Positions 11,989 through 51,293 of a stretch of 64,000 nucleotides of DNA are shown here, piece by piece. The notes under the pieces were generated by a model. The model searched no databases. It saw only the letters and a program-made list of their open reading frames with translations, and was not told the origin of the DNA. The stretch is from an uncultured Ignavibacteriales bacterium. GTDB taxonomy: Bacteria > Zixibacteria > MSB-5A5 > GN15 > FEB-12. The translations under genes and the position numbers were made by a program. The DNA is taken from positions 2,278-66,277 of the forward strand of contig CAZFOY010000002.1 of NCBI GenBank assembly GCA_964520865.1. The letters are read 5' to 3'. Numbering within the stretch: position 1 is the stretch's first letter; each line of letters opens with the position of its first letter.

Positions 11989-12043
11989 CTCCTGTGTAAT
12001 CAGCGCTTTTCGAGAAGCGGTCGGTGATGTTGAACGAGGATCG

Positions 12044-14940: not shown

Positions 14941-14950
14941 TCTCTAAGAA

Positions 14951-15907
14951 TCAATTGGCATCCTGCTGAGTGTAGAGGGCGCAGGGAATCAAGATAGTCG
15001 GAGGAACTTCTTCGCCGGAAACGTATGCTTTGACAGCTCCGATTGTTCTCTCGCCGATCACGTGTGGCTGCTGGATAACATCGGCGTATATCTTACCTGC
15101 TTTAATTGCCGCCCGCGCTTCGGGCACGGCATCGAACCCGACGATAGTTATCTGCCCGCTCTTGCCGGCTTTCTCGACCGCCGCGAGGGCGCCGAGGGCG
15201 GAGTCGTCGTTAATGCCGAATATCGCGGTCAAATCCGGATGGGCCTGGATAATGTCCTCGGCCGTTCGGAACGCCTGATCTTTGACCCCGTGGCCGGACA
15301 GTTTGGCGACAATCTTTAAACCGGGATACTTGGCCAGTTCGTCTTCGAATCCCTTCACCCGCTGAATAACCGACTCAACTTCCGGATGGTCGATTATCGC
15401 AACCTTACCGGTGCCATTCAACGCCTTGGCGATCGCCTGCGCGGCGAGTGCGCCGCCGGCGATGTTGTCCGAAGCCACGTGAGACACGACTTTGACTCCT
15501 TCAGCCAGGCAGGCGATATCGGCGGTAAAGACCGGAATACCGGCGTCGTTGGCCGCCTTGATCGCCGTGCCGATCGATTTGGAGTCGCAGGGAGAGACGA
15601 TGATGGCGTCTACCTTTCGGACGATGAAATCCTGAATCTGATCCTTCTGCTTTGCGACGTCAAACTCGCCCGCCGTAACGAGCAGTTGATAACCGGCCGA
15701 ATCGGCCGCGTCTTTCAGCCCTGCCTCGAGTTCCTGATAGAAGGGGTGAGTTCGCGTGAGCAACGACACACCGATAGTCAATTTAGGCTGTTTGGTGGTC
15801 ACTTTTGCGGAAGCGTTGTCGGTTTCGCTCTTGTGGCATCCTGCCAGGAGCATTGCCGCCAAAACGATACTGCTGATTGAACCTGCGATGATGAATTTTC
15901 TGAACAT
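14951..15907 (-). CDS. sugar ABC transporter substrate-binding lipoprotein (RbsB-like periplasmic binding protein)
   Basis: Lipobox LLAGC. Type I periplasmic binding fold sequence (IGVSLLTRTHPFYQEL...VDAIIVSP...IPVFTADI). Confidence 0.85.
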   Translation of the reverse strand: MFRKFIIAGSISSIVLAAMLLAGCHKSETDNASAKVTTKQPKLTIGVSLLTRTHPFYQELEAGLKDAADSAGYQLLVTAGEFDVAKQKDQIQDFIVRKVDAIIVSPCDSKSIGTAIKAANDAGIPVFTADIACLAEGVKVVSHVASDNIAGGALAAQAIAKALNGTGKVAIIDHPEVESVIQRVKGFEDELAKYPGLKIVAKLSGHGVKDQAFRTAEDIIQAHPDLTAIFGINDDSALGALAAVEKAGKSGQITIVGFDAVPEARAAIKAGKIYADVIQQPHVIGERTIGAVKAYVSGEEVPPTILIPCALYTQQDAN

Positions 15908-19269: not shown

Positions 19270-19651
19270 CCCAACGCGCCCTTAAGGGCGTACTCAGATC
19301 CTTTTTCTCCACATATAGTTAGAAATTTCCCAAAGTCAATGTTGAGCTGAGTGCAATGTCTCCAAATTACTAATCTGATGCTTACCCTCGTTTAATTATT
19401 CCCTAACACAATAAGGGTTCTGTTGGGAAATCGTTACCAACATGCAAGCGCCGGAAAAACTTGAAAACGAAAACAGACCCGAAATCGAAAGTAGACAAGT
19501 ACAATATCCCCGTCGGTTATGTTGCGCACAGGCAAACGACCCGGACAAAGGATTGGTCAGACACGAAAACTAAAGGAAGAGGCAGATTTTGAAACACGAA
19601 TTAACCTCACAGTCACAAACTTTTCATCCCAAAACCAGGAGCAGAGAACAC

Positions 19652-20719
19652 ATGAAGAGAGTGATCACGATCTTCGCAATCGTCATCGGTTTGATGTCGG
19701 CGGTTTCAGTACACGCTGCGGATACCAAGGTGGGTGGCCGCATGTACGGTTACTGGATGCTTAACAAGACCGATGGAGCTGACAACTACAACAATTTTGG
19801 TCTTGATCGCGCCTATATCGATGTGAAGTCGAAACTGACCGAGTATACTTCCGCGCGGGCGACCATGGACCTGAAGCAGCTGGAAGGCTACGACGGCTAT
19901 ACGATGATTCTGAAGTACGGATACCTCGATTTCAAGCCAAAATTCGGTGAAGGTTGGGTAACTTTCAGGTTCGGTCTTCAGCCGACTCTCTATATCGACA
20001 ACATGCAGGACCTCTGGCATCGCCGCTATGCCCTGAAGGTAATCAGCGACAACAAAGAAATGCTGACCTCATCGGATCTCGGCGCCGGCCTCCTGGTTGA
20101 CCTGAGCAAAGACAAAAAGTACGGCTATGTTCAGGCCACCGTTTGGAATGGCGGTTCCTACTCGCACGTGAAAGACAAAAACAAGAACAAGAACTTCAAC
20201 GCCTTCATCCACTTGAACCCGGTTCCGACCAATGAAGACTGGAAGAAGTCGACGATTCTTGCCCAGGCGTATGTCGGTTCGCAGAATGTGGCGATCGACA
20301 GCGGCATGAGCGCCTCCGATGTGAAACAGAACCTGTTTGAATTCGGCGGCCTGCTCGCCTATCGGAACAGCTTCGATATCGGCGCCGACCTCAATTTCGA
20401 GACCAAAGGCATGGCTGACACAGCCGGCACGTATATGGACGTTAAGTCTCAGGGGCTGTCGTTCTTCGGCACTTTCTTCTTCCAGGATTTTGTCGACGAG
20501 GCCTCCCCGCTCCGGGACATCAACCTGTTCGGTCGTGTTGACAAATACGATCCTAATACCGACGTCGACAAAGACGGCGAAACGATGGTGGTAGGCGGCG
20601 TTGAGTGCGTTCCCGCCCCCGGCGTCAGAGCTTCGATCAGCTACCGGAACACCAGTTATCAGGCTGACAATGCGGTCAAGACAAAGACCTTCTACTTTAA
20701 CACGTTGGTGAAATTCTAA
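19652..20719 (+). CDS. porin-like outer-membrane beta-barrel protein (hypothetical)
   Basis: I prefer the internal ATG at 19652 (AGGAG 11 nt upstream). It gives a clean signal peptide, MKRVITIFAIVIGLMSAVSVHA/AD. Alternating aromatic/polar beta-strand pattern; ends in ...LVKF. Confidence 0.55.
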   Translation: MKRVITIFAIVIGLMSAVSVHAADTKVGGRMYGYWMLNKTDGADNYNNFGLDRAYIDVKSKLTEYTSARATMDLKQLEGYDGYTMILKYGYLDFKPKFGEGWVTFRFGLQPTLYIDNMQDLWHRRYALKVISDNKEMLTSSDLGAGLLVDLSKDKKYGYVQATVWNGGSYSHVKDKNKNKNFNAFIHLNPVPTNEDWKKSTILAQAYVGSQNVAIDSGMSASDVKQNLFEFGGLLAYRNSFDIGADLNFETKGMADTAGTYMDVKSQGLSFFGTFFFQDFVDEASPLRDINLFGRVDKYDPNTDVDKDGETMVVGGVECVPAPGVRASISYRNTSYQADNAVKTKTFYFNTLVKF

Positions 20720-26400: not shown

Positions 26401-27078
26401 ATGCTGATTTTGACACTTCGGCTTGCTACAGTTATGATCTCTTGTGTACTTCTGGCCGGCGCCGTTCTGGCAGCCGACGGCTATGTCTATCCGGATTCAG
26501 CGCGGATACTCTTCTCCTGGCAAACTTCAGGTGACACCATCACAGTTCAGCTGACCAATTCAGGAACGAGCCCGGTGCAGTTCAGCAGCATCACCGACAT
26601 CACCGAGGCAGATGTAACCACACTCCGATGTACTATTGATGGAACAGATATCACCCCGATCCCGGCTCTCAGCTTGTGGGGATCTATCTATCCGTCGAAG
26701 CTCTCCACAAGTTGGCAAACGGGTGCGTTTTCGCATTCCGCGGTTGTCAGGTTTGTTGCGCCCGGATACCAGCCGGGGAGTCTGAGTTGGATGGCGTTTT
26801 CGGACTATCCGATGTTCGGTATGGCTGATAGTGCCTTCGCACCCGGTGATTGCTGCGTCGGGTTGCGGGGAAACATTAACAACGATCCACTGGATCAGAC
26901 CGACATCTCCGATCTGATTTACTTTGTTGAATACATGTTCAACGATCCGCCCGCAGCGGCACCACCCTGTCTTGAAGAAGCAGATCTGACCGAGGACGGC
27001 ACGATTGACATCGGCGATTTGATCGCGTTAGTGGATTACACATTCGGAAAGGGACCGGATCTCCCGTCCTGCCCCTGA
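26401..27078 (+). CDS. secreted hypothetical protein with C-terminal dockerin-like duplicated EF-hand module
   Basis: Signal peptide ...LLAGAVLA/AD. C-terminal GNINNDPLDQTDISDLIYFVEYMF ... ADLTEDGTIDIGDLIALVDYTF gives two calcium-loop plus helix repeats. Confidence 0.6.
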   Translation: MLILTLRLATVMISCVLLAGAVLAADGYVYPDSARILFSWQTSGDTITVQLTNSGTSPVQFSSITDITEADVTTLRCTIDGTDITPIPALSLWGSIYPSKLSTSWQTGAFSHSAVVRFVAPGYQPGSLSWMAFSDYPMFGMADSAFAPGDCCVGLRGNINNDPLDQTDISDLIYFVEYMFNDPPAAAPPCLEEADLTEDGTIDIGDLIALVDYTFGKGPDLPSCP

Positions 27079-33860: not shown

Positions 33861-35096
33861 ATGCCGTCGATGTACAGTTATAGCTCTCTGGAAACGTTTC
33901 GCATCTGCCCCAAGAAGTTTCAGTTTACTTATATTGACAAAGTTCCGGTAGAGGAGAAAGTCGCGGCTGACACATATCTGGGCAGCGCGGTTCATCGCGC
34001 GTTGCGCAAGCTCTATACGGCCGGCGCCGACGGCGTGCTCATTCCGCTCGATGACATTGTAAAGTTTTATCGCTCCGAATGGAATAAGCTGTCCCGCGAA
34101 CTGATCTCCGTCACTTCGGATTTCTACACGGTTGACGATTATATTCGAATTGGCGAGGAGATGTTGGCCAGACACTACGAGAAGCATAAACCGTTCAATC
34201 AGGGGACCTTGCTTGGGGCCGAGATGCATCTTGTCTGCACTTTACCGGACACGCCGTTCAAGTTTCGCTGCTATATCGACCGACTGTGGAAAAAGGAATC
34301 CGGTGAAGTCGAGATTTGCGACTTCAAGACCGGCCAGACCCTGGCGCGACCGCAGGATCCGAAATTCTTTTTCCAGATGGGGATCTATCAACTGGCGGTG
34401 CAACAAAACTTTCCTAAATACCAGGACATCTTGGTCGCTCAGTATTTCCTTCGTAAAGACGAGATAGTTTCTTATCGCATGTCGCCGGAGGAGATCGCTC
34501 AGCTGGTCGAGCAGCTGCGGCAGGCCGTTCTTGCCAGCCTTCAGGCCACGAAGTTAGGCGAGTTTCCGGCTCAGGAGGGGACCCACTGCAATTATTGTGA
34601 TTACGTGAGCGTGTGCCCCGCCAAGAAGCATCGCAAGCTTCTCGATGAAGAAGCTGCATCCGGAGGAAGTGTCGACGCGGAGAAGCTCAGGGAATTGGCG
34701 AATCGCTATATCGAGAAAAATCAGGAAAGCAAGACGATAAAGTCGGAGCTCGATTCTCTCAAGGCGGAACTTCTGGAAATCGCCCGCGAGCAGGATATGT
34801 CCGTTTTCGAAGGGGACACCGGGCGGGTTTCGGTGAAGGTCAACACCCGTGAGAAGTTCGTAACCAAGTCTGAAGATGAACAGGCGTTCGCCGACCTGAA
34901 TGCGACAGCCCGGGAACTCAGACTCGATGATTACTTTGTGGTCGACTCCACCAGCCTTCTCAAAGACGTGTACCTCAAGAAGATGCTGCCCCAAGATCAG
35001 CTCGACAAGCTCTCGCGGTTCGTCATGCGTAAGGACGAGCCTCGGGTGACTATCAAGCGCACCCATCAATCGGACAAGGACGAAGATATCGTCTGA
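33861..35096 (+). CDS. PD-(D/E)XK nuclease, Cas4/AddB-like with Fe-S cysteines and a C-terminal coiled-coil extension
   Basis: Motifs YIDRLW...GEVEICDFKTG (D...ExK) and QMGIYQLAV (QxxxY). Cys16 plus CNYCDYVSVCP (CX2CX5C), as in Cas4/AddB iron-staple nucleases. Confidence 0.8.
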   Translation: MPSMYSYSSLETFRICPKKFQFTYIDKVPVEEKVAADTYLGSAVHRALRKLYTAGADGVLIPLDDIVKFYRSEWNKLSRELISVTSDFYTVDDYIRIGEEMLARHYEKHKPFNQGTLLGAEMHLVCTLPDTPFKFRCYIDRLWKKESGEVEICDFKTGQTLARPQDPKFFFQMGIYQLAVQQNFPKYQDILVAQYFLRKDEIVSYRMSPEEIAQLVEQLRQAVLASLQATKLGEFPAQEGTHCNYCDYVSVCPAKKHRKLLDEEAASGGSVDAEKLRELANRYIEKNQESKTIKSELDSLKAELLEIAREQDMSVFEGDTGRVSVKVNTREKFVTKSEDEQAFADLNATARELRLDDYFVVDSTSLLKDVYLKKMLPQDQLDKLSRFVMRKDEPRVTIKRTHQSDKDEDIV

Positions 35097-35126
35097 AAAG
35101 TCAAAGGACGTGGGAAGTGAAAAGGA

Positions 35127-35151
35127 AAAGCCCGACCGAAGGTCGGGCTTT
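35127..35151. terminator. bidirectional Rho-independent terminator (AAAGCCCGACC gaa GGTCGGGCTTT)
   Basis: 11-bp perfect stem with a 3-nt loop. T-rich on the plus side, A-rich before the stem. Lies between convergent genes. Confidence 0.65.
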
Positions 35152-35178
35152 CTTCATTTCTAATATGAAGGAACGATA

Positions 35179-35757
35179 TTAGTCGACCTGTTTCGCTACG
35201 AAGGCAGGGCGAATCTCGATGATCTCCCGGTTGGCTATCGGAATGGTGTCCGGAGTGGCCCCTCCCTGCACAGTCGAGGCTATGACCAGCAGAGAGTTGT
35301 TGGGGTTGGTCGTAGTGGTGTCAACATCGAGTTTCTCGATCGGCTTCTTGTCCAGCGACGATACAAATACGGTTACCAGTCGTCCACTGCCTGCATCGAG
35401 TATCTTATGGGTCGGTCCGAGATTGGCGATCATGCCAAGCGTGACACATTGAATCGCGGTATCAGCCCGCATCCCCTTGTAGTCGAAAGTCTCTACCCGG
35501 CCACCCGTATAGATGGCTGAGTCGGCTACTACCCGGGTCATGCCTGCCGTCATCCTTAGCGGCACTGACAGACCCACGACCGATTCGTCGTTGGTGCAGC
35601 TGATAGTAATCGTCCAGTTGTTATCGTTGATTTTCGCGACATCGGCATACACGGTGTCAATCTTCCCGAAGTTGTCGACCTGGGCGGCCGCCAGGGCAGG
35701 CAGGATTACCACCGATGCTACAAGCATCAAGAGAGAGATCGTCCGTAAGCGTTTCAT
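35179..35757 (-). CDS. secreted hypothetical protein (beta-rich, 192 aa)
   Basis: Signal peptide ...ILPALAAA/QV. No motif I can name. Confidence 0.55.
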   Translation of the reverse strand: MKRLRTISLLMLVASVVILPALAAAQVDNFGKIDTVYADVAKINDNNWTITISCTNDESVVGLSVPLRMTAGMTRVVADSAIYTGGRVETFDYKGMRADTAIQCVTLGMIANLGPTHKILDAGSGRLVTVFVSSLDKKPIEKLDVDTTTTNPNNSLLVIASTVQGGATPDTIPIANREIIEIRPAFVAKQVD

Positions 35758-35802
35758 TTTTCCTCCATCCTCGTTAAATACAAGCGCCTTGTCTTGTACC
35801 CT

Positions 35803-37311
35803 CTATTTGTCAAAAAGATCCTCGCCGGTTGTGTCTTCGCCGATTGTCGTCAGGGAAGATTGAAGAATGGCTCTAAGAGAATCTGCCTTCTGAGGGTTAT
35901 TCAATTGTGTACGATATATTTCGGAAGCTTCGGCCAGGGCACTGCTCCCCTGACTGGTCCGTGGAAATTTGTTGAACACGGTCTGAAGTGTCTGGGCCGT
36001 TTTGGTCCAGTTCTTATCGAGACGGTATAGGTCTGCTTTATATAGCAGGGCGCGAGCCTCGTCCTGTCGACCCGCTCCACTTGATTCCAGGGCGCTGAAA
36101 TACTGCTCGGCATCTTTGTGCCACTTGTCCGCTTCGGCCGTCCGGCCGTGATCTCGGAAGTACTTTACGAGGTACAGGTAGGTCTGCATCGCCTCTTCAG
36201 AATAGCGGTATTTCTCTATCAGCAGGTCGTACTCGTTTTGAGCCAGGTTCCACTTGCCATCCAGTTCATACGCCCTCGCATATGTATATTGTACTGCCGG
36301 TGTGGCGGCGTAGTAGTCAGGGAACATCTTCTTGATCATGTCGATCTGAGCCCGGGCTTCGGCATACTTCTTCTGATCCATGTTGAGGATCGCTATTTTG
36401 AACTGAACTTCCGGCTTCATTGCCGAGTCTTCCGGTTTGAGCCGGTCGAGCGTTTCGTTGTAGAGCGCCATGGCGGTGTCGAACTTGCCCAGTTGTCCAC
36501 CGTAGATATCGGCCTTACGGATGAGTATCGTCAGATAGCTCGGCTTGGAAGGATCTGCAATCGCGTTCAGTTCGGCAATCTCCTTCCGCCATTGCCTTGA
36601 ATCATCATACATGCTGGCGAGATTCGAATGGCTGGCAATTGCCACTTTAGTCCCCGGATAATCGGTTACCAGATTGCGATAATAGTTCTCAGCCTGGTTG
36701 AATCGATTCTGGGCCGCCGACGTGTCCCTGAGATAGCTGAGCACGCGGTAGATATGTGTCGGTAAGTTGAAGACCGGGAAGATAATTTCACCGGCCTTGT
36801 CAAGCGGCGGATAGAATCTCTCGATAGCGTTGTCATAAACGGCCAGGGCAGAGTCCCACATATTGGACGACTGCAGTGTCTGGCCAAGGTTAATGTATGC
36901 GTTGGCAAGTTGTGCTCCGGAAAGACTCAGCGTGTTGAGCATTCGGTTAAACAACAGAATGCAACTGTCCGCCTGACCACTCGAGTAGTACAACTGGCCA
37001 AGGCGATTCGAGGTCTGGTATGCGAGGTATGTCAGTTCATTGTACTCGACCGGATACCGCATGCTGTCCGTCGACTTGAGCGAACTGATGCAGAACGCGA
37101 GCAGGTTGCGGTATTCGCCGGATACTTGCGCTAACGTCGATGGTGTGAGATTCGGGTTTAGGGCCAGTACATTCTTCAGCGCCCGCTCGGCCCGATCAAA
37201 CCGCTTCTCTGCTTCGTAACGTGAGCGAAGCGCCGGATTGTCCGAGCAGGACGACAGAGCCGCAAGGATAAGGAGACCTAATACAATTTTGAAGCCGGAC
37301 GTTTTTCTCAT
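35803..37311 (-). CDS. TPR-repeat lipoprotein
   Basis: The internal ATG at 37311 gives MRKTSGFKIVLGLLILAALSSC (lipobox). The body is repeated TPR-like helices. The 72-aa track extension crosses a terminator. Confidence 0.8.
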   Translation of the reverse strand: MRKTSGFKIVLGLLILAALSSCSDNPALRSRYEAEKRFDRAERALKNVLALNPNLTPSTLAQVSGEYRNLLAFCISSLKSTDSMRYPVEYNELTYLAYQTSNRLGQLYYSSGQADSCILLFNRMLNTLSLSGAQLANAYINLGQTLQSSNMWDSALAVYDNAIERFYPPLDKAGEIIFPVFNLPTHIYRVLSYLRDTSAAQNRFNQAENYYRNLVTDYPGTKVAIASHSNLASMYDDSRQWRKEIAELNAIADPSKPSYLTILIRKADIYGGQLGKFDTAMALYNETLDRLKPEDSAMKPEVQFKIAILNMDQKKYAEARAQIDMIKKMFPDYYAATPAVQYTYARAYELDGKWNLAQNEYDLLIEKYRYSEEAMQTYLYLVKYFRDHGRTAEADKWHKDAEQYFSALESSGAGRQDEARALLYKADLYRLDKNWTKTAQTLQTVFNKFPRTSQGSSALAEASEIYRTQLNNPQKADSLRAILQSSLTTIGEDTTGEDLFDK

Positions 37312-37434
37312 GATAGTTGTATCGGAAATTGATGATGTCTTGTATACACTTAGGCGAATATAGAAGAATCCAAAACGGGGTACAAGGCAATTTTCCGGTT
37401 TTCTGCACTGTCGGTCGCGCCCCGGCCAATAAAA

Positions 37435-37457
37435 AAACCCGCCTTGAAGGCGGGTTT
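37435..37457 (-). terminator. Rho-independent terminator after the PEP-CTERM gene
   Basis: aaacccgcc ttgaa ggcgggttt. On the minus strand it is followed by a T7-8 run. Confidence 0.7.
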
Positions 37458-37483
37458 TGTACAGGAAATTCAGGACGAATTGT

Positions 37484-38233
37484 CTATTTTTTACGTCTGC
37501 GAACGATTCCGGTACCCAGCAGGCCAAGACCGAACAGGAGCATTGTCCCCGGTTCAGGTACGGCAGTCGTGAAGTTCTCTTCCATCAGGTCATTGCCACA
37601 GCCGACATTGACGTGGAAGGACAAACTGTTGAAGTTTCCGAGCAGCGAACGGTCAAACTTCAATTCCCAAACGTACGTGTCGCCGTTTCCGGGAGACATG
37701 TAGTTCGTCTCGAGATCCGGGGCGAAAGTCATCATCGAATTGACCGAACCCAGAAGATTCCCTTGGGCCATTTCATGAGCGCCGGCGGCGTTTCTGATGG
37801 TCGAATTGCTGTAGTAGCTGTGGGGATCCTGCTGAATGTAGTTCCAGCTGTTTACCTGATACAGGCCGGTATTGTTGCCGCCTGCAGTGAGATCGACGGC
37901 ATACTGATATTTGTTGCCGCCGTCGACACCGATAAACAGATCGCCGAGTCTGAACCCTTCCTGGGAATAGCCAAATGAGTTCGTCAGCGATACGTAAACG
38001 AAATCCTGGTCTACCGCCACATTCAGACCTTCAAGATCGAATGCCTCACCGCCCGGATTGTATGAACCGGGGGAAGGCTGGTGGCCTATCCCGTAAGGAT
38101 AGCTGATGGGAGCCCAGTTGTTGTTGTGGTCGAAGATGTGGTCCTGTCCAAAGTCGTAGTAGGTGTAGCTGAAGCCGAAAGCCTGAACTGACACCAGCAT
38201 GAGGGCCGCGACCAGAATTACAAGTTTCTTCAT
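37484..38233 (-). CDS. PEP-CTERM sorting-domain secreted protein
   Basis: Signal peptide. C-terminal VPEPGTMLLFGLGLLGTGIVRRRKK is a canonical PEP-CTERM motif plus TM plus basic tail. Confidence 0.85.
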   Translation of the reverse strand: MKKLVILVAALMLVSVQAFGFSYTYYDFGQDHIFDHNNNWAPISYPYGIGHQPSPGSYNPGGEAFDLEGLNVAVDQDFVYVSLTNSFGYSQEGFRLGDLFIGVDGGNKYQYAVDLTAGGNNTGLYQVNSWNYIQQDPHSYYSNSTIRNAAGAHEMAQGNLLGSVNSMMTFAPDLETNYMSPGNGDTYVWELKFDRSLLGNFNSLSFHVNVGCGNDLMEENFTTAVPEPGTMLLFGLGLLGTGIVRRRKK

Positions 38234-38290: not shown

Positions 38291-38566
38291 ATGCCGCCTA
38301 TCGGTGCTCACGAGACGATATGTATCTCTTTTGAATACAGAGACTTACGCTACCCAATCCGGTTTTCAAGAGACGATAGTGGCAAGCCGTTGCACAATGT
38401 TTGCGAAAATCACGATTCCATACGGGTGCGTTGCATCAGTTGTAGCTCGGTGGAATTTAAGGCGATAGACCTCCCGTTTCTTCATCTTGAAGCTGCTGAA
38501 AGCAGGTAAACTACAGCAATTGTGGTGTCATCTCACGGTTGGGCTGTCACAAAAAAAGGAACTACC

Positions 38567-39838
38567 GTGAGAATATTTGGTCGCAAGAAACTGCCGATTC
38601 CGCCTGCTACCGCCGCGATGAAGAATCCGGCAACAGTATTAATGGGGAACCAACCAGCGGTCGGACGGAAAAGCATCGGTCGGTATTTGCCGGGACTGCC
38701 TGTGGATAGCGGCTTATCCCGGAGGAACAAAATAATGCTCTACCGCTTCCTCGCGGACGAGATCCCGGTTGTGCAGGCGTGCGTGGCTACCTGGGTGAGG
38801 ATGAGCACCGCTCCCGGAAAGTATGTGATTAATCCCGATGTCTCAGCCGCGGTCCGGAAGCGGGCCGACGGGAAGCTGAACGAGCTTGCCGACCGACTCA
38901 ATTCGCACGAGCAACGAAGGCAAGGAAGCCTGGTCACGTTTCTCGCCGAGCTGTTTCAAGGGCTGTACCGTGACGGAGCATTCGGTGGGTTCCTCAGGGT
39001 GAGAGAAGATGGGATTGCTATCGACCGATTTCAACCTGTAGACACTTCGTCGGTCATACTGGACTCCACGAACGGTCAACGTCGGCTTCTGTTCGAAGGA
39101 AAAGATCAGTTGCTATCGCTCGACAGCCCTGATTTCTACATGCTGTCATTCAATTCCGATGAAACCCGTCCGCTCGGTCGATCGATCCTGCAAACCATTC
39201 CGTTCGTAGCGTACATTCAGCAGCAGCTTGTCGATGATATGCGGAGGACAAGTCATAACGCGGGCTATCATCGGCTGCATGTCAAGGTAACCCCTCCCGA
39301 ACGAATCTCCGGCGAGTCGGACAAAGCCTACATCGATCGGATCAACAGCTACTTCGACTCCACTGTCTCGATGATCAAGTCATGCCGGATCGATGAGAAC
39401 CCGGTGACCTGGGACAATGTTGCCATCGATCATATCGGTCCGGAGAACGTACGGGCCGTTACCAACAGCTGGTTCATGAATCATCGGGCGATGGTCGAAG
39501 AAATCTGCGCCGGAACCAACCTCGCTCCATTCATGCTTGGTTATTCGTACGGTGCCACTTCGACATGGTCGTCGTTCAAGTTCGATCTGGCGATGAGACA
39601 GGTGCGTTCGGTGCAAGCCGAGGCCGCTACTTTCCTTGAGTGGATCGGAAACATTGAATTGACTCTCGCCGGCATTCCCGCAACTTGCAGCTTTCACTTT
39701 GACAACACCTACGCATATCAAGCAACCGATGCCTCGGCGATTCGGGCGCGAGAGGTCGATGGCCTGCTCAGACTGTTCGAGTCAGGTCTGATCGACGAAG
39801 CCACCGCCCGCCAGAAAGCCCAGCAGCTGCTTTCGTGA
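38567..39838 (+). CDS. phage portal-like protein (putative)
   Basis: Translationally coupled (GTGA) to a terminase large subunit. About 420 aa. The N-terminal LYRFLADEIPVVQACVATW region is reminiscent of Mu gp29/DUF935-type portals. Start uncertain: GTG at 38567 with AAGGA 6 nt upstream, or the track start at 38522. Confidence 0.45.
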   Translation: MRIFGRKKLPIPPATAAMKNPATVLMGNQPAVGRKSIGRYLPGLPVDSGLSRRNKIMLYRFLADEIPVVQACVATWVRMSTAPGKYVINPDVSAAVRKRADGKLNELADRLNSHEQRRQGSLVTFLAELFQGLYRDGAFGGFLRVREDGIAIDRFQPVDTSSVILDSTNGQRRLLFEGKDQLLSLDSPDFYMLSFNSDETRPLGRSILQTIPFVAYIQQQLVDDMRRTSHNAGYHRLHVKVTPPERISGESDKAYIDRINSYFDSTVSMIKSCRIDENPVTWDNVAIDHIGPENVRAVTNSWFMNHRAMVEEICAGTNLAPFMLGYSYGATSTWSSFKFDLAMRQVRSVQAEAATFLEWIGNIELTLAGIPATCSFHFDNTYAYQATDASAIRAREVDGLLRLFESGLIDEATARQKAQQLLS

Positions 39839-41163
39839 CGATTGCCGAACAGGTCGACTGGCGCCTGGCCCTGGCCGATCCGGTTCACTTCGCGGAAGCA
39901 GTGCTCGGAATCAGCCTGCACCCGGGTCAGAAGAATTGGCTTCGTGAATCAATATCACACGAGAACCTGCTCGTTACAGGGAATCGGTGGGGAAAATCGT
40001 TTATCTGCGCGGTCAAGGCGCTTCATCGGGCGGTCTTTCGATTACGCGATATCAAATATGATACTTCCCGCAAATACCGCATTGTTACCGCCTCGATCAC
40101 GCAAGACCAGGCGAATATCGTTTTTGACCGAGCCGTCCGGCTGCTTCGTGAATCCGAGCTGCTCCATCCTTTCATTCTCACACTGACGAGATCCCCCTAT
40201 CCGCGATTGGTACTTTCGAACGGCGCGGTGCTCGAGGCGCGTTCGACGCAGAATCGGGGAGAGTATCTTCTTGGTAACGACTATGATTACTTCATCTTCG
40301 ATGAAGTCGCGTTCGAGAGCGATCCCGACTATGTCGTCGAAGAGGTCATCAAAATGCGCCTTGCCGACCGTGAGGGGATGCTTGATCTCGTCTCCACGCC
40401 GAATGGTCGAAACTGGTTCTACCTCCGCGCACGCGAAATAATCGAACGAAAACGGCCCGGGTACTTTCAGTCCGGGGATACCCGGGACAACAAATTCATT
40501 TCAGAAAGCGCAGTTCGGGCACGAATCGAGTCGTTCTCCGACCGCAGAGTTCAGCAAAACATCATGGGGAAGTTCGTCGACAGCGGCGGCGAGATTCTCA
40601 AAGGTGAATATGTCGATCGCGCGTTGGAGAACGCAAAGCGCATCGGGCAGGGAGCTGATTCGACCCGCTATTTTGTCTCGGGATGGGATCTTGCTCGCAA
40701 GAGAACTGCCACGGTTGGTGTGACAGTCTCGGTTGAAAACGGACACGCACATGTCGTCTGCCTGGAGCGATTTCGAATGTTCGACTGGAACGTGGTCATT
40801 GAGAAGATCCGCCAGCGCCAGGAAGAGTACCCCGGAGAACTGGTCGTAGATGCTACCGGGCTGGGTGATGTCGTCGTTGAGCAACTCCGGGATTACCGAC
40901 CGACCGCCGTAATCTTCTCGCCATCGACCAAGGCAGAACTGCTCACCAATGTCGAGCTTTACCATGCCCGTAATCTGCTGTCATACCACCGCTGGGAATT
41001 GCCGGATGGACCGGGGCGGATCTGGTCGCTCGAAGATGAACTTCGCAAGGCGCAGTGGGATGACAATTCAGAATGCGATGCCCTGATGGCATTAGCCCTC
41101 GCGCTGTGGCCGCTCAGAAAACGCAAGATGATTGCACCACTGCCCAGAGTCGGACGAGTGTAG
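39835..41163 (+). CDS. phage terminase large subunit-like protein
   Basis: Walker A-like GNRWGKS, Walker B YDYFIFDE, coupling motif STP. The C-terminal RNase H-like nuclease has acidic motifs GWDLA, VVDATGLG and CDALMALALA. Confidence 0.85.
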   Translation: MTIAEQVDWRLALADPVHFAEAVLGISLHPGQKNWLRESISHENLLVTGNRWGKSFICAVKALHRAVFRLRDIKYDTSRKYRIVTASITQDQANIVFDRAVRLLRESELLHPFILTLTRSPYPRLVLSNGAVLEARSTQNRGEYLLGNDYDYFIFDEVAFESDPDYVVEEVIKMRLADREGMLDLVSTPNGRNWFYLRAREIIERKRPGYFQSGDTRDNKFISESAVRARIESFSDRRVQQNIMGKFVDSGGEILKGEYVDRALENAKRIGQGADSTRYFVSGWDLARKRTATVGVTVSVENGHAHVVCLERFRMFDWNVVIEKIRQRQEEYPGELVVDATGLGDVVVEQLRDYRPTAVIFSPSTKAELLTNVELYHARNLLSYHRWELPDGPGRIWSLEDELRKAQWDDNSECDALMALALALWPLRKRKMIAPLPRVGRV

Positions 41164-41297
41164 CGTGATTCGTTCGATTCACCCGGAATCCTGTTGAAAT
41201 TCAATTCGTTAATCGAGACATATGAACTTCATCTTTAAGGTGGCGATAAATTCACCGACGGCCGGTGAATTACGACAGATTCTCTCCAAAAAACCTG

Positions 41298-41325
41298 TTG
41301 ACACGCTCCGAAGGATGCGTATTAT
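41298..41325 (+). promoter_or_regulatory. sigma70 promoter for carAB (-35 TTGACA, 16 nt, -10 TATTAT)
   Basis: Exact -35 and near-consensus -10. About 170 nt upstream of the carA ATG. Confidence 0.55.
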
Positions 41326-41496
41326 GGTTCAATCTCACCCAGGTCCGCACGGTACCTTCGACCGGAGATTCGTCGTCCACGTTGCGGACAGGCCGTATCA
41401 CAAGATAACCGACAGGAAGGTCTCGAAAGTGTTCAAAGGACTCGGAACACACAACTCGACTTGCGTCGCAACGGGCAGCGCGGGGTGGCTGCACTG

Positions 41497-45911: not shown

Positions 45912-46529
45912 TCAACGGATTATCGAAACCTGTTCGATGTCATCCAGCGGTACTTCAACTTTGCCGCCGTTGTTGCTACCCACGAGTCGCCACTCGTTCT
46001 TGAAACTTAGCGTAGGTTGATCGAGCACGGTGGTTTGTTTCTTTCCCTGTGCGTTCATTCGCTCGAGTTTGAGACGTTGTCTGCCCCTGATCGCCGCGTT
46101 GATGAGCATCGAAGACAGAATCTCCGAACAGTCGCTTACCTTTGCCACGCCGGCAAGCTGCTCCTCGTAGGCATCGAGAATCTCCTCCAGCGGATGCTCC
46201 TGACTTGAAATCAATTTGGAGATCAACATCTCGATATTGCCCTGATACCTGTCGCCAAGGCCGGCCGCGAGCAAACGCAGGCCGGAGACGAGCATGACCG
46301 CTTCATCCGGTCCGAGTGCAACCCCCTGGCTTTTGTTCCGCTGATACAGCCGGTACGCCTTGAGCCGCTTGTCGTATACGACCGGGAAGTTCGCCTCGGA
46401 GATGTCGTTGATGTATCGGTAGGCGGTTCGTTCCGGGACTCCACAAACTCGCTCGATCGTCTTCAGGGTGACCATCGGTCGATTCGTGAACAGATTAATA
46501 AGAGTGAGGATTCTACTTAGTTTGTTCAT
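45912..46529 (-). CDS. HTH (DeoR/YafY-type) regulator with WYL-like C-terminal domain
   Basis: N-terminal LSRILTLINLFTNRPMVTLKTIERVCGVPERTAYRYINDI is a winged HTH. C-terminal ...FKNEWRLVGSNNGGKVEVPLDDIEQVSII resembles the WYL beta-barrel. At 205 aa it is shorter than typical YafY proteins. Confidence 0.55.
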   Translation of the reverse strand: MNKLSRILTLINLFTNRPMVTLKTIERVCGVPERTAYRYINDISEANFPVVYDKRLKAYRLYQRNKSQGVALGPDEAVMLVSGLRLLAAGLGDRYQGNIEMLISKLISSQEHPLEEILDAYEEQLAGVAKVSDCSEILSSMLINAAIRGRQRLKLERMNAQGKKQTTVLDQPTLSFKNEWRLVGSNNGGKVEVPLDDIEQVSIIR

Positions 46530-47105: not shown

Positions 47106-50100
47106 CTAATCTTTGAGGTGATATTTCTGAATTTTATACTGTAGCGTGGCGTAGGGCATACCAAGAGCCTCGGCGGTCCGCTTCACATTCCCTTTGTTCT
47201 TGATTAATGTCGCGCGTATCGTCTCTTTCTCAATCTGTTCTTTGAGCTTTTTCTTTTGCTGCGGGTCGTTGAAGGCCCGTTGCATTGGGGAAGGAAGATC
47301 GGTAAGCTTGACCTTCTCGCCGGCCTGGACAACACAGAATCTTTCTACGACGTTACGGAGTTCGCGCACGTTGCCGGGCCAGTCGTAGCTGAGGAAGGCC
47401 ATCCGCACATCATGCTCGAACACAGGTGGACGGTGACCGGTCGAGAAAAGCTTGACGAAGTGCTCTAGGAGTAACCTGATATCGTCGATGCGTTCTCGGA
47501 GCGGCGGGATTTCGAACACATATCCGCTGATACGATGGTAAAGGTCGCTGCGGAAGGTCCCTTCATCGATCATTTTCAACAGATCCTTATTGGTCGCGTA
47601 GATGAACCGGATATCTGTCTTGAGCACTTTGTTGCTGCCGACACGCTCGAACTCCTGGTACTCGACAGCACGGAGGATCTTGGCTTGGGCTGCGAGCGGC
47701 ATGTCGCCAATCTCGTCAAGGAACAGCGTCCCTCCATCGGCGGCTGAAAATTTTCCGTCGCGTGCCGCGACACCGGTTGCCGCGTTGCTCGCGACACCGA
47801 AAAGTTCACTTTCGAGCATGCTCTCAGGAAGCGCCGAGCAGTTGAGTTTCACCAGAGGACGATCCTTGCGATCGCTCAACCGGTGAAGATACTCGGCTAC
47901 GATTTCCTTGCCGGTGCCACTTTCTCCAAGTATCAGCACTGGCAGGGAGAACCGGGCGATCTCCGGAAGCCGGTCGAACATTTTCTGAACGGCACGATCC
48001 TGCGTGATGAACCGGTGCGCCCCGATCTGCTTGTTGATATCTTCAACCAGCTGGCGGTTAATGACGCTCATGTCGCGATAGCTTTCGATTGCCGAAAGCA
48101 TCAGGCCGATGAAATTGGCGATTGATCTGATGTACGTTACATCGTCCTGCTCGAACAAGGCCGGAATCGTGTGGTGATCCAGATAGAGCACGCCCAGCAG
48201 TTTATCTCCGTGCATGATAGGCAGGCAGATGACCGAGAGGATGTTGTGCGCCACGATGCTACGGTAGTCTTTAGTCCGCTTGTCGGTTACGGCATTGTCG
48301 AGAATGAGCGGTTCGTGCTGATGGGCCACCTGTGACGGAACTCTCATGCTGATGTCGGCGATGTCCCGAAGGCTTTCGTCGTCGCAATTGACAAACGCCT
48401 TCACCCGTAGCTCGTCGGACTGACTCGCCTTTTCAAGAATTACCCCTCGCTCCGCGCCGGTCTGATCGACGGCAAAACGGACAATCTGTTCCAGTGAACG
48501 ACCATAGTCGTCAATATGCTTCAGAATCTCGGATATGCCCAGCAGTGAGGCAACGATTCGCCCGATATTTTCCTCAGGGTTTTCAACCGTGTCGATTTCT
48601 GATTGCAGACCGGCCATCATAGGTTTGTTCTTCAATTGAGTGGCATGTCTCAGCGACTGAATGAGGAACTTAGTCCTTAGTTTCCCTCGACCGGACTTGC
48701 CGTACTCCAGGGCAATTCTCCGACAAACGATCATAGCGGCGAACGTTCTGCCCGCGCCGGACAGAATGCGATAACAGGATTTTAGCATCAAGAGCAGTTG
48801 CTCAGAATTGACCTCACCGTTCATGAGTGGCTTCAATTCTTTAAGTACGGCGAATATCGGAATCTCGGCGGTTTCGATCAACGGCTCGAGCGTGGCTGTC
48901 GTTTGCTTCAGGTCATCGAATCGAGTTTCGTTTTCATCCATCAGCATGTAGAAGAGGCAGTAGCCAGCGTCCCACACTGCGTCGTACTCTATCAGACTCT
49001 GCATGAGCGGCAGCAGATCAGGCGGAGGTTCAGTGGTATTGAATTTTCGGTTGGTCGAGACTACCAACTCCAATTCCTGCTGGCATCTCTGGTTATCGAT
49101 CCTTTCGAAAATATGGCGGGCGGACTCGGCGTATTCCGAAACTTGTTGAGTATTCCCTTCAAAGCAGGCGATTTCGGCAAGAGCCATATAGATGTGTCCC
49201 TCTGTCAGAGCGACCATATCGTTTCTTACCAGGTCCAATGCTATCATTGCTGCTGATTTCGCTTGTTCCAGGGAGCTGCGTGTTTTCTCCAAAACCAAAA
49301 GGCTGTAGTAGTACGTTGCAAATTCGCGGTGATCCATTTCCGAGGCATAGTTGCTCCAGACTCTGCTGAGCCAGTATTCCGCCTTTCGATATTCACCGAG
49401 CCTCAGATAGCAGAAGCCGAGGTGTCTCCACATTTCACGCTCCCGCCAGCGCTCCGATCCCTTTATCGCGTCCATCGTCAGCACGGCTCTTGCCGTTTTG
49501 ATGGTATCACCCGGCCGGTACATGGTGCGAAGGCATGAGACCAGGCCGGCTGCCCCCCGAAGCGCTTCGCTTTCGAGACGAACATCGCGGGCAACCTCAT
49601 AACTCTTGCGAAACTGCATCTCGGCGTCGGCCGTCCTCCCCTGGGTGAAAGCGGCATAGCCAAGCACATAATGGTTGGTCGAATCGAGCAAGGGCGAGTC
49701 GAGTTCCGAGGAACGTTCCAGGATCGTCCGCATGGACTCCTCAACCTCGGCGAATTTACCTTCCAGGCAGAGCACCAGGGCACCAAGAGACTCGAATACC
49801 AGCTCCATTTCGAGGGAGTGTGCCTTTCTCGCCTCGGCCATGCCGAGCTCAGCGAGATCAGCACCATACTGATTCGGCCTGATTCCGAACGACCTCGGTA
49901 TGAGACGATAGACGAGATCCAGGTCGACCGCGTTTCTGGACTGCTGCAGCCGGACCGCTTCATCCATCAACGAGACGCACTCACGCCGTAGGCCCATTTG
50001 TAATGCGAGATCAGCCGATTCTTTCAGAACTCTTTCAAGCAATTCCGTGCTCAGCTCGAGCTGCTTTTCGATATGAGCCTCCCGGATCGCCTGATAAATC

Positions 50101-51293
50101 AGCAGGGCAGGCTCCGGGATGTCGCGATCTGAGAGGTCATTCGCGGTTCGAGCGGCTTCACTCACGATTTCCTGCGATGTAAGCGTGCATTGAGCGGGGA
50201 TCAAGGCATGCCCCGCGCTTATCTCTGAAGCGGCATTGTACACTTCGATGAGCAGATTGCCGGGTGGAGCCAGGTACCAGTACTCCCCGAGCCTCTTGAT
50301 TGCGCTCTCCAGGGCGATTCGCCTGAACAAAGCAAAGGCCTGGCGCTTCGAATTGCGCAGGATATCCTGAAGGCTGTCGACCAATTCGGTTCGGAGTCCC
50401 AAAATCTTGCAGGCGTCCAGCAACGACTTCTTGATGCCGGCGTTCTCGATCTGACGCACACCGGTCTCACGGTACCGATTGAGAAGTATGATCCCCGCGA
50501 GCTTACGCTCTAATTCGGCATGTCGCTTTTGGTCGACGAACTTGTACTTGAGTAGCGTGTCTATGAGCACCCTTGGCCGATGCAGCGGATCCGCGCTCGT
50601 CAGTTCGTCCGCAAGTTCCCTGAGCCTCGAGACATCAGCTTCGACATCGTGAGCGGTCCGATCAAGCGACTCCTCGATCACTTTTTTGAGCATCATGCCG
50701 ATGGAAAAATTGTCCGATTGAATCAGAATCGTCTCATTGTTGAGAATCTCCGGCGCGATGTGATCCGGGCTGCCGACAATTCGAGCCTTCGGGTAGGAGC
50801 CGGCTTCACACATGAAGTCGAGGTCGATAAGGCGAATCCGTGGAACACCTTTCGAATCTGAGGGGCCAACTATGAAATTGCTCAGTTTCAGGTCACAGTG
50901 GACAAACTGAAGGAAGTGGAGATAGTCAATTGTGAGAAAGAGTTCCGGTAGCAGGAGATCAAGGCGCTCCAGTAACAACGATCCGGTGAGAACCTGCCAT
51001 CGATCCTCGTCGAACTTCGGATACTCGATGAACAATACCCCGTTCTCGACACACTTAGCCCGGGCGGTCAGGACCCGTGGATTTCTTATGCCGCGCTGGC
51101 AGGAGTAAGAGTTGAGTAGAACATTTCGCTTTTCATCGGTCGGAATAGTGCTTTCCGGATTGACCGTCTTAACAAAACAGGGATACCCGCTGGCTGTCGA
51201 CTCGGCGATCCAGGATTGACTCAAATCGTTGGTTGAAAGAAGATGGACGAAGTGGTATTTGGTGCTGACAGGGTCTGACATGGTAGCCGCCAC
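47106..51293 (-). CDS. Ser/Thr protein kinase - helical/TPR - GAF - sigma54-type AAA+ - Fis HTH fusion regulator (1395 aa)
   Basis: Kinase motifs: CFVKTV (Lys), HCDLKLSNFIV, IDLDF, GSPDHIAPE. GAF: ...LSVICLPIMHGDKLLGVLYLDH. AAA+: VLILGESGTGKE, GGTLFLDEIGDM, WPGNVRELRN. C-terminal HTH: GNVKRTAEALGMPYATLQYKI. GTG start; ATG alternative at 51281. Confidence 0.85.
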   Translation of the reverse strand: MAATMSDPVSTKYHFVHLLSTNDLSQSWIAESTASGYPCFVKTVNPESTIPTDEKRNVLLNSYSCQRGIRNPRVLTARAKCVENGVLFIEYPKFDEDRWQVLTGSLLLERLDLLLPELFLTIDYLHFLQFVHCDLKLSNFIVGPSDSKGVPRIRLIDLDFMCEAGSYPKARIVGSPDHIAPEILNNETILIQSDNFSIGMMLKKVIEESLDRTAHDVEADVSRLRELADELTSADPLHRPRVLIDTLLKYKFVDQKRHAELERKLAGIILLNRYRETGVRQIENAGIKKSLLDACKILGLRTELVDSLQDILRNSKRQAFALFRRIALESAIKRLGEYWYLAPPGNLLIEVYNAASEISAGHALIPAQCTLTSQEIVSEAARTANDLSDRDIPEPALLIYQAIREAHIEKQLELSTELLERVLKESADLALQMGLRRECVSLMDEAVRLQQSRNAVDLDLVYRLIPRSFGIRPNQYGADLAELGMAEARKAHSLEMELVFESLGALVLCLEGKFAEVEESMRTILERSSELDSPLLDSTNHYVLGYAAFTQGRTADAEMQFRKSYEVARDVRLESEALRGAAGLVSCLRTMYRPGDTIKTARAVLTMDAIKGSERWREREMWRHLGFCYLRLGEYRKAEYWLSRVWSNYASEMDHREFATYYYSLLVLEKTRSSLEQAKSAAMIALDLVRNDMVALTEGHIYMALAEIACFEGNTQQVSEYAESARHIFERIDNQRCQQELELVVSTNRKFNTTEPPPDLLPLMQSLIEYDAVWDAGYCLFYMLMDENETRFDDLKQTTATLEPLIETAEIPIFAVLKELKPLMNGEVNSEQLLLMLKSCYRILSGAGRTFAAMIVCRRIALEYGKSGRGKLRTKFLIQSLRHATQLKNKPMMAGLQSEIDTVENPEENIGRIVASLLGISEILKHIDDYGRSLEQIVRFAVDQTGAERGVILEKASQSDELRVKAFVNCDDESLRDIADISMRVPSQVAHQHEPLILDNAVTDKRTKDYRSIVAHNILSVICLPIMHGDKLLGVLYLDHHTIPALFEQDDVTYIRSIANFIGLMLSAIESYRDMSVINRQLVEDINKQIGAHRFITQDRAVQKMFDRLPEIARFSLPVLILGESGTGKEIVAEYLHRLSDRKDRPLVKLNCSALPESMLESELFGVASNAATGVAARDGKFSAADGGTLFLDEIGDMPLAAQAKILRAVEYQEFERVGSNKVLKTDIRFIYATNKDLLKMIDEGTFRSDLYHRISGYVFEIPPLRERIDDIRLLLEHFVKLFSTGHRPPVFEHDVRMAFLSYDWPGNVRELRNVVERFCVVQAGEKVKLTDLPSPMQRAFNDPQQKKKLKEQIEKETIRATLIKNKGNVKRTAEALGMPYATLQYKIQKYHLKD

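Follow-up and report, generated by a model that had tools for sequence, protein, structure and literature searches.

On a 64-kb stretch of chromosomal DNA from an uncultured bacterium of the phylum Zixibacteria (contig CAZFOY010000002.1, positions 2,278 to 66,277 of the forward strand; hereafter the window, in its full length), we identify an adjacent pair of + strand genes encoding a phage-type portal protein and the large subunit of a terminase (TerL). Comparison with related genomes makes it on balance probable that this pair is the packaging motor of a phylum-wide, host-domesticated system resembling gene transfer agents (GTAs), the operons of which have become unlinked in the clade of the window, with the motor likely partnering capsid genes elsewhere. 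A handful of independently domesticated GTAs are known, nearly all of them from cultured bacteria. GTAs resemble remnant phages that retain packaging and structural genes only and are inherited vertically; they are often multi-locus, with loci that can comprise "only one or two genes", and their true prevalence was named as an open question in a 2024 review (PMC11841831). Here we document the identity of the two proteins, the gene cluster to which they belong across the phylum, the inheritance of that cluster and the clade-specific rearrangement that left the window pair on its own.

Identity of the portal and TerL genes

A preliminary description, made from the letters of the window, had reported two + strand open reading frames (ORFs), 38522..39838 (438 aa) and 39835..41163 (442 aa), overlapping by GTGA. 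Both ORFs and the overlap were confirmed, with one refinement of a start site, and the pair is laid out as follows.

38556..38560, + strand: Shine-Dalgarno-like AAGGA, read from the sequence, 6 nt 5' of GTG 38567
38567..39838, + strand: portal protein gene; read from GTG 38567 it encodes 423 aa, and the longest ORF, read from GTG 38522, 438 aa
39835..39838, + strand: GTGA overlap, in which the GTG start of TerL overlaps the TGA stop of the portal gene (from ORF coordinates)
39835..41163, + strand: large terminase subunit TerL, 442 aa, with an N-terminal packaging ATPase and a C-terminal RNase-H-like nuclease

We read the GTGA overlap as translational coupling of portal and TerL. TerL matched Pfam Terminase_6N (3.1e-9; score 37.2 bits, cut-off 22) and the PHROG family phrog_2, "terminase large subunit" (7e-33), and its profile matched a solved ATPase domain (4ZNJ, 4e-7) as well as the nuclease domains 5TGE and 5M1F. 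An AlphaFold2 model of the protein (predicted local distance difference test, pLDDT, 78.9) retrieved full-length T4 gp17 in Foldseek searches (4e-18), together with the HK97, D6E and Sf6 terminases and the nuclease domains of G20c, P74-26 and RB49. The catalytic hallmarks that had been listed for this protein all proved intact: Walker A NRWGKS at residues 50-55 (K54), Walker B YFIFDE at 152-157 (D156/E157), STP at 187-189 and the acidic nuclease residues D285, D339, D345 and D415 are invariant over the 23 TerL homologues in which catalytic motifs were judged. When 73 other TerLs were taken as the reference, the window protein was found to keep 98 of the 98 residues invariant among them. The second gene encodes a T4-like large terminase in which every catalytic motif is retained.

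The start of the first gene was placed by comparison. Homologous portal proteins begin with M(R/K)LF.RKK, and because these N-termini align with the internal GTG 38567, which is preceded by the AAGGA 6 nt upstream, the portal most likely starts at that codon and comprises 423 aa; an in-frame "KKG" 5' of the start recurs at homologous loci. The protein matched two PHROG portal families (phrog_3753, 3.9e-15; phrog_30703, 7.5e-9). No Pfam match, Portal_Mu PF06074 (formerly DUF935) included, was obtained for the window protein or for 20 Zixibacteria homologues, its profile matched no PDB sequence, and a full-library HMMER search with it retrieved 184 related representative clusters and no more. 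With the sequence-profile searches of PDB and Pfam empty, the fold was recognised only after a diverse alignment of representative relatives had been made. An AlphaFold2 model built on a 40-sequence alignment of distant relatives (pLDDT 82.8; predicted template modelling score, pTM, 0.70) gave 130 Foldseek matches to PDB structures at E<=1e-3, every one of the best 50 being a portal protein (E as low as 4.6e-10, probability 1.0, TM 0.5-0.58); they include those of phage 812, T4 (gp20), HK97, HFTV1, G20c and lambda. The modelled fold, with the clip, stem, wing and crown elements of portals, indicates that the first gene encodes a tailed-phage portal protein, in agreement with the identity proposed earlier from less direct signs. 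A likeness of its N-terminus to Mu gp29/DUF935 had also been remarked upon; that remark has transitive support, since 8 of the 40 distant portal relatives match PF06074 (best 1.6e-9), although the window protein itself has no Pfam match. The window portal thereby appears to be related to Portal_Mu while lying outside the current model.

A function as a defence decoy was considered and rejected. Portal and TerL matched no defence-system protein model in a PADLOC scan.

A phage-derived cluster at one chromosomal position in Zixibacteria

Relatives of TerL were found in 235 GTDB species genomes, the scan taking one genome per species. The best 80 of these, which were analysed as loci, are 56-84% identical to the window protein and derive essentially all from metagenome-assembled genomes (MAGs) of Zixibacteria, six complete chromosomes among them; the best 120 TerL clusters, all 62-84% identical, bear the names Zixibacteria or GN15, several of them residing on chromosomes of megabase scale. 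The portal gene adjoins TerL in 78 of the 80 loci, and the other two are interrupted by contig ends. All point to a single chromosomal slot with both flanks syntenic. Upstream, the order GT1, GT2, PD-(D/E)XK nuclease, secreted protein of ~190 aa, TPR lipoprotein and often a PEP-CTERM protein is kept in 41 of 48 loci (this and the following locus counts take in only loci with sufficient sequence on the side concerned); the downstream flank, also conserved, comprises DUF7451, a radical-SAM enzyme, an HD response regulator (RR-HD) and an M50 peptidase.

Between these flanks most genomes carry a cluster of ~13 kb (a full copy is found, for example, in CP070777.1) in the order portal-TerL, h509, h107, h133, h139, major capsid protein (MCP), h470, h270, h124, h88, h428, h468. 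The three genes from h107 to h139 are small, and six distal genes follow the MCP. The MCP matches phrog_3922, "major head protein" (3e-61), and is an HK97-type major capsid protein; it is present in full length in 36 of 44 loci. The gene h509, present in 49 of 52, has an N-terminal region of ~200 aa that resembles annotated head-maturation proteases, in the manner of a prohead protease fusion. For the distal genes, Pfam returned just a CarboxypepD_reg domain and a weak Phage_capsid_4 match, the CarboxypepD_reg/Ig signals being weak, and profiles of h470, h139 and h270 found nothing among PDB sequences, or in the case of h470 weak sialidase/BNR-like matches. Unbiased clustering of all ORFs from the 80 loci yielded no other linked family, so that the cluster holds no integrase, repressor, replication or lysis gene. 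Synteny in related genomes had been named as a check on the pair; the relatives hold this head and packaging cluster at its fixed slot, and not full prophages.

A further gene is embedded in the cluster. In ~40 loci TerL and h509 are separated by a conserved gene, read from the opposite strand, for a PEP-CTERM protein of ~110 aa (~100-125 aa; for example L011:11478-11801, L052:11397-11711 and L173:6604-6933, all on the - strand); it is not found in the window. At its N-terminus the product carries a membrane anchor (..LKWxxAxxIFxLxMTxTFxDVYG), at its C-terminus a PEP-CTERM motif, and between the two a stretch of low complexity, features by which we predict it to be a host-type exosortase substrate lodged within the phage-derived cluster. 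Because this opposite-strand gene separates TerL from h509, portal-TerL forms a transcription unit of its own, apart from the capsid operon.

The gap between TerL and h509 is also a place of insertion. Four unrelated genes are inserted there in L134, and in several lineages genes for chagasin-like protease inhibitors (Pfam Inhibitor_I42) stand after TerL, 5' of the prohead-protease fusion gene (L004:11381-11782, L002:12331-13244, L134:2098-2499).

Vertical inheritance and viral relatives of the cluster

Mean pairwise identity of the cluster genes is 0.71 for MCP, 0.69 for h139, 0.65 for TerL and 0.58 for the portal, beside 0.58 for GT2, 0.53 for p190, 0.42 for the PD-(D/E)XK nuclease and 0.36 for the TPR lipoprotein among flanking host genes; MCP, TerL and portal are conserved as much as or more than the host genes around them. 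Within the phylum, MCP identities range from 61 to 89%. Divergence of the cluster genes follows that of host genes, with Mantel r of 0.76 for TerL, 0.65 for the portal and 0.64 for MCP (p=0.0005).

Viral counterparts were sought among 50,697 phage genomes and 2.9 M viral contigs (IMG/VR). The closest is an 11-kb IMG/VR contig (L088, IMGVR_UViG_3300027896_005586) with TerL 49% and MCP 60% identical and the same gene order, portal-TerL-h509-h107-h139-MCP-h470, at 39-60% identity over its genes. Among the viral contigs it alone has this gene order. We place it as a sister lineage of the cluster, stemming either from a relative of Zixibacteria not yet sampled or from the ancestral phage group. The second-best IMG/VR TerL falls to 36% identity and the best from a cultured phage to 29%, and relatives of the MCP among the phage genomes are only five unannotated gut contigs (31-35% identity).

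Unlinking of the pair in the clade of the window

The pair had been described as an orphan, with opposite-strand envelope genes to its left, carAB under a promoter of its own to its right, and no other phage gene, tRNA or attachment (att) repeat nearby. These surroundings stand: Pfam and PHROG scans of the 64-kb window reveal no capsid, tail, lysis, integrase or replication gene, there is no tRNA at 30-50 kb of the window, and no direct repeat flanking the pair was found. GC content is flat through the locus and the same as in the flanks. The orphan state holds for the window clade, that is, for the window together with the two genomes closest to it, L007 (CAVQCT01, MFD02416.bin.1.319; TerL 84% identical) and L008 (CAYJOL01; 77%); it is lineage-specific, however, since most Zixibacteria have the capsid operon next to the pair. 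Only in these three genomes does carAB follow TerL directly.

41164..41460, + strand: TerL-carA rearrangement junction, alignable in the window, L007 and L008, holding the carA promoter-like site and a conserved leader

In the three genomes the spacer between TerL and carA is of near-equal length (301, 300 and 297 nt) and can be aligned, with blocks in common, which points to a single ancestral rearrangement. Since the genes of the usual downstream flank are all absent after TerL, a rearrangement is indicated and not a simple deletion. No remnant of h509, Inhibitor_I42, h107, h133, h139 or MCP was detected in the spacer (hmmsearch --max). The promoter-like site, TTGACA-16-TATTAT, is at 41298-41325.

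Over ~300 nt (41164-41496) the leader of carA displays, downstream of the near-consensus promoter, blocks conserved between the window, L007 and L008, for example CAATCTC...GGTC, GAGATTCGTCG, GACAGGAAGGTCT and GTGTTC.AGGA; it matched nothing in Rfam and is possibly an unrecognised cis-regulatory RNA for pyrimidine biosynthesis.

Divergence within the clade records what has happened to the pair since. Synonymous divergence (pS) among the three genomes is 0.69-0.83, hence saturated, and nonsynonymous divergence (pN) amounts to 0.11-0.16 in TerL and 0.19-0.20 in the portal gene. The ratio dN/dS, which the saturation of synonymous sites allows to be bounded from above only, is at most ~0.05-0.06, in the same range as for the neighbouring carA; the test for relaxed selection proposed in the preliminary description was thus run, and no relaxation was seen. 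Divergence of portal and TerL in the clade lies on the phylum-wide trend and, set beside five host genes, is not consistently accelerated. In addition to the TerL residues noted above, the window portal keeps 53 of 54 phylum-invariant residues and departs at one only, by a clade-specific E->Q change in the YIEQQLVDDMRR helix. The pair has been under strong selection since its unlinking, and low pN at saturated pS, the lack of acceleration and the retention of invariant residues mark it as functional and not debris. The earlier suggestion of a domesticated packaging module, as opposed to random prophage debris, is supported by the folds, the fixed locus, dN/dS and the invariant residues.

The substituted portal residue is the Q in "FVAYIQQQLVDDMRR", at about residue 218 of the 423-aa protein, and is common to the window clade; the clade that shares this change is also the one whose pair has lost its linkage to the capsid operon.

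Split and eroded loci

Loci with just one part of the cluster intact are not confined to the window clade. A full-length MCP is missing beside an intact pair in 8 of the 44 TerL-anchored loci, distributed over ~seven unrelated lineages; in L053 the genes h107 to h428 have been cleanly deleted in situ (11300-15700), and in L010 / CP070674.1 the MCP is truncated to 152 aa (L002/L010:16571-17028). The complete chromosomes CP070824.1, CP070756.1 and CP070674.1 carry truncated clusters. A reverse survey anchored on MCP, covering 30 loci on metagenome contigs, uncovered two (L173 and L217) in which the head operon is intact with no portal-TerL within 7-10 kb. In L173 sucCD stands in front of the head operon and the small PEP-CTERM gene is still present, which places the breakpoint in the same inter-operon gap. 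L217 is of a high-GC lineage (GC 0.68) and L173 of the L011 group, neither of them tied to the window clade. Each half thus occurs alone, as the loci of a multi-locus system would be expected to look.

Other changes are of the eroding kind. The portal of L024 contains an in-frame stop, and h139 is interrupted by ~55 nt of unrelated sequence (L136-L138:1-244), at which three independent assemblies break; contigs of P0200 likewise break inside h139. The interruption suggests a repeat or mobile element.

A probable packaging motor of a domesticated system, and alternatives

The reading that we favour runs as follows. In the ancestor of Zixibacteria a phage-derived cluster of ~13 kb would have become fixed at one place in the chromosome, and from then on it would have been passed on vertically under purifying selection. 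Procapsids would be built by the operon of protease, h139 and MCP, and the pair would supply the motor: the portal, a protein that in tailed phages assembles as a dodecamer, as the channel at one capsid vertex, the TerL nuclease cutting DNA and the TerL ATPase pumping it through the portal. In the ancestor of the window clade, a rearrangement with its breakpoint between the two operons would have brought carAB to lie after TerL. We infer that particles may be produced and host DNA packaged, with the capsid operon of the window genome at another place. The absence of genes for integration, lysogeny, replication and lysis, together with vertical inheritance, argues for a domesticated particle system of the GTA kind, and since selection on the pair has been strong after unlinking, it is most likely that the pair continues to work together with capsid genes at another locus.

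Several observations weigh on the other side. The window holds no capsid gene by tblastn, and, a weaker point, no MCP homologue on the 2.26-Mb contig of L007 or the 593-kb contig of L008 appeared among the best 120 matches of two MCP searches. Head genes have really been lost in some lineages, so the orphan pair might lack partners here as well, and among the cluster genes none could be recognised as encoding a small terminase, tail tube, tape measure or lysis protein.

These same losses give substance to an alternative that we hold unlikely yet the most serious of those considered: that the pair is functional but its capsid operon is gone from this genome, the motor having taken on a capsid-independent or exapted role, for example as a machine for DNA translocation or cleavage. 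Those ~seven independent lineages (8/44, the in-situ deletion of L053 included) keep portal-TerL intact with no full-length MCP beside it, selection in the window clade has lasted long past unlinking, and an otherwise invariant portal residue has changed in just this clade. Set against this are the reciprocal loci with the head operon only, which fit a multi-locus system, the possibility that other truncations are recent, and the fact that the invariant residues retained are those of a canonical packaging motor; we know of no capsid-independent function of a portal/TerL pair. The more specific proposition that the motor is kept free-standing, for a function that requires no capsid of its own, is one we regard as quite unlikely; were it true, this would be the first known case of a cell co-opting a viral packaging motor by itself, on top of a phylum-wide and phylum-old GTA-like system. 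A non-functional relic of the ancestral cluster with its decay still pending seems to us improbable. Adjacent head genes are indeed absent and other lineages are eroding, as the truncated MCP of L010, the deletion in L053 and the portal stop in L024 attest, but the junction is common to three genomes with pS of 0.69-0.83, in which both ORFs are intact at pN of 0.11-0.20, and the invariant residues (98/98 in TerL, 53/54 in the portal), the unaccelerated rates and the preserved GTGA coupling are not those of a decaying pair.

Packaging genes occur in phage satellites, and an isolated packaging module devoid of capsid genes could be taken for one, related to phage-inducible chromosomal islands (PICIs) or their capsid-forming kind (cf-PICIs) and hijacking the capsids of an unrelated helper phage. 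This satellite-type option, also raised in the preliminary description, did not hold up and we consider it very improbable: integrase, att repeat, tRNA and replication gene were all sought and not found, the distribution is not patchy, the position is fixed and co-diverges with host genes through the phylum, the cognate capsid operon is linked in most genomes, and the pair is not represented in IMG/VR above 49% identity. Least probable of all, in our judgement, is an active temperate phage, or a prophage of recent date, that comprises the whole cluster and integrates repeatedly at one conserved site. Every recognisable gene is phage-derived and L088 shares the gene order; a cluster of only ~13 kb without integrase, repressor, replication or lysis genes, in which a host-type gene is embedded, whose MCP is 61-89% identical phylum-wide and co-diverges with host genes, whose GC equals that of its flanks and for which neither the phage genomes nor the viral contigs contain a close phage, is nonetheless hard to reconcile with such an element.

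Other genes of the window

The block upstream of the pair, 33861..38233, probably consists of host genes.

33861-35096, + strand: PD-(D/E)XK, Cas4-like nuclease (PF12705, 2e-33; phrog_69 "exonuclease", 4e-32; PADLOC Cas4, 7.6e-10)
35179-35757, - strand: secreted protein of 192 aa
35803-37311, - strand: TPR lipoprotein
37484-38233, - strand: PEP-CTERM protein

The nuclease, with its matches to Cas4 and to a phage-exonuclease PHROG, went unmentioned in the preliminary description. It lies 3.4 kb 5' of the portal, has a weak Pam3 gp33-like C-terminus, and is found upstream of the portal in most Zixibacteria loci; its divergence follows that of TerL most closely (rho 0.78). Rather than being a mere neighbour, it could take part in the function of the particle system.

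The remainder of the window is ordinary chromosome, with hydrogenase genes, an ABC transporter, a chemoreceptor (of the type also abbreviated MCP), a PAS-LuxR regulator and glycosyltransferases, followed in our inventory by carAB, a WYL regulator, a sigma-54 activator/kinase, glgB, malQ and PDH E1. The WYL-domain/HTH transcription regulator (45912-46529, - strand; PADLOC WYL 1.5e-19; phrog_13105) comes right after carB and is kept in the related genomes L006 and L007. At 47106-51293 (- strand) a 1395-aa fusion unites a Ser/Thr protein kinase, TPR, GAF, a sigma-54 activator AAA+ domain and a Fis-type HTH, and is present in L006 too. Two + strand ORFs, 19589-20719 (376 aa) and 26401-27078 (225 aa), have no Pfam match.

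Significance and comparison with known systems

The kind of entity proposed here, a domesticated phage-derived particle or GTA, is already known; what the comparisons add is a candidate new GTA family, one that appears to be fixed throughout an uncultured phylum. Full-text searches returned nothing relevant that links Zixibacteria with GTA, terminase, capsid or prophage, and as far as the searchable literature shows, the cluster family, its phylum-wide fixation, the extreme conservation of its capsid, the two-operon layout with a host gene embedded in it and the repeatedly surviving motor-only loci are undescribed. Conservation of a capsid protein at ~71% identity is extraordinary for a virus-derived gene. 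If particles are made, Zixibacteria would own an ancient, host-controlled DNA-packaging system, possibly serving gene exchange, and the motor-only and capsid-only loci would amount to a natural experiment on the maintenance of a motor without a linked capsid. In practical terms, annotators are warned that these genes in Zixibacteria MAGs are not prophage contamination.

The two components themselves are those of tailed-phage motors. T4 gp20/gp17, HK97 and P74-26/G20c share with the Zixibacteria pair the same folds, the catalytic motifs and adjacent, translationally coupled genes; the Zixibacteria TerL differs in being <=29% identical to TerL of cultured phages and in residing at a fixed locus of a cellular chromosome, in the window with no linked capsid. 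The cf-PICIs are likewise chromosomal elements bearing portal, terminase and capsid genes without a full phage genome, but the Zixibacteria cluster has no integrase, att site or replication module, is neither mobile nor patchy, and is inherited vertically.

The genes of RcGTA are ordered TerS-TerL-portal-protease-MCP. The Zixibacteria cluster is not a co-linear head-tail cluster of that type: portal-TerL forms a separate operon, then come the protease through to MCP, with an opposite-strand gene embedded, and genes for a tail tube, a tape measure or TerS could not be recognised. GTAs have a small terminase lacking a DNA-binding domain, and their particles carry random host DNA to recipient cells. 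Its origin appears independent, its host phylum is uncultured, and it is known from comparative genomics alone. The likeness to RcGTA, which is found in Alphaproteobacteria (Rhodobacter capsulatus, Caulobacter), lies in a head and packaging cluster of ~13-15 kb without life-cycle genes, vertically inherited in a large clade under purifying selection, in which one- or two-gene loci set apart from the cluster can encode some of the components (PMC11841831). BaGTA of Bartonella, VSH-1 of Brachyspira, Dd1 of Desulfovibrio and VTA of Methanococcus are separate domestications of different tailed phages and are functionally analogous (PMC11841831). These four are defined by particles and transfer assays, whereas the Zixibacteria system is defined by comparative genomics only; its full cluster consists of packaging and structural genes only and is inherited vertically under purifying selection, as GTAs are.

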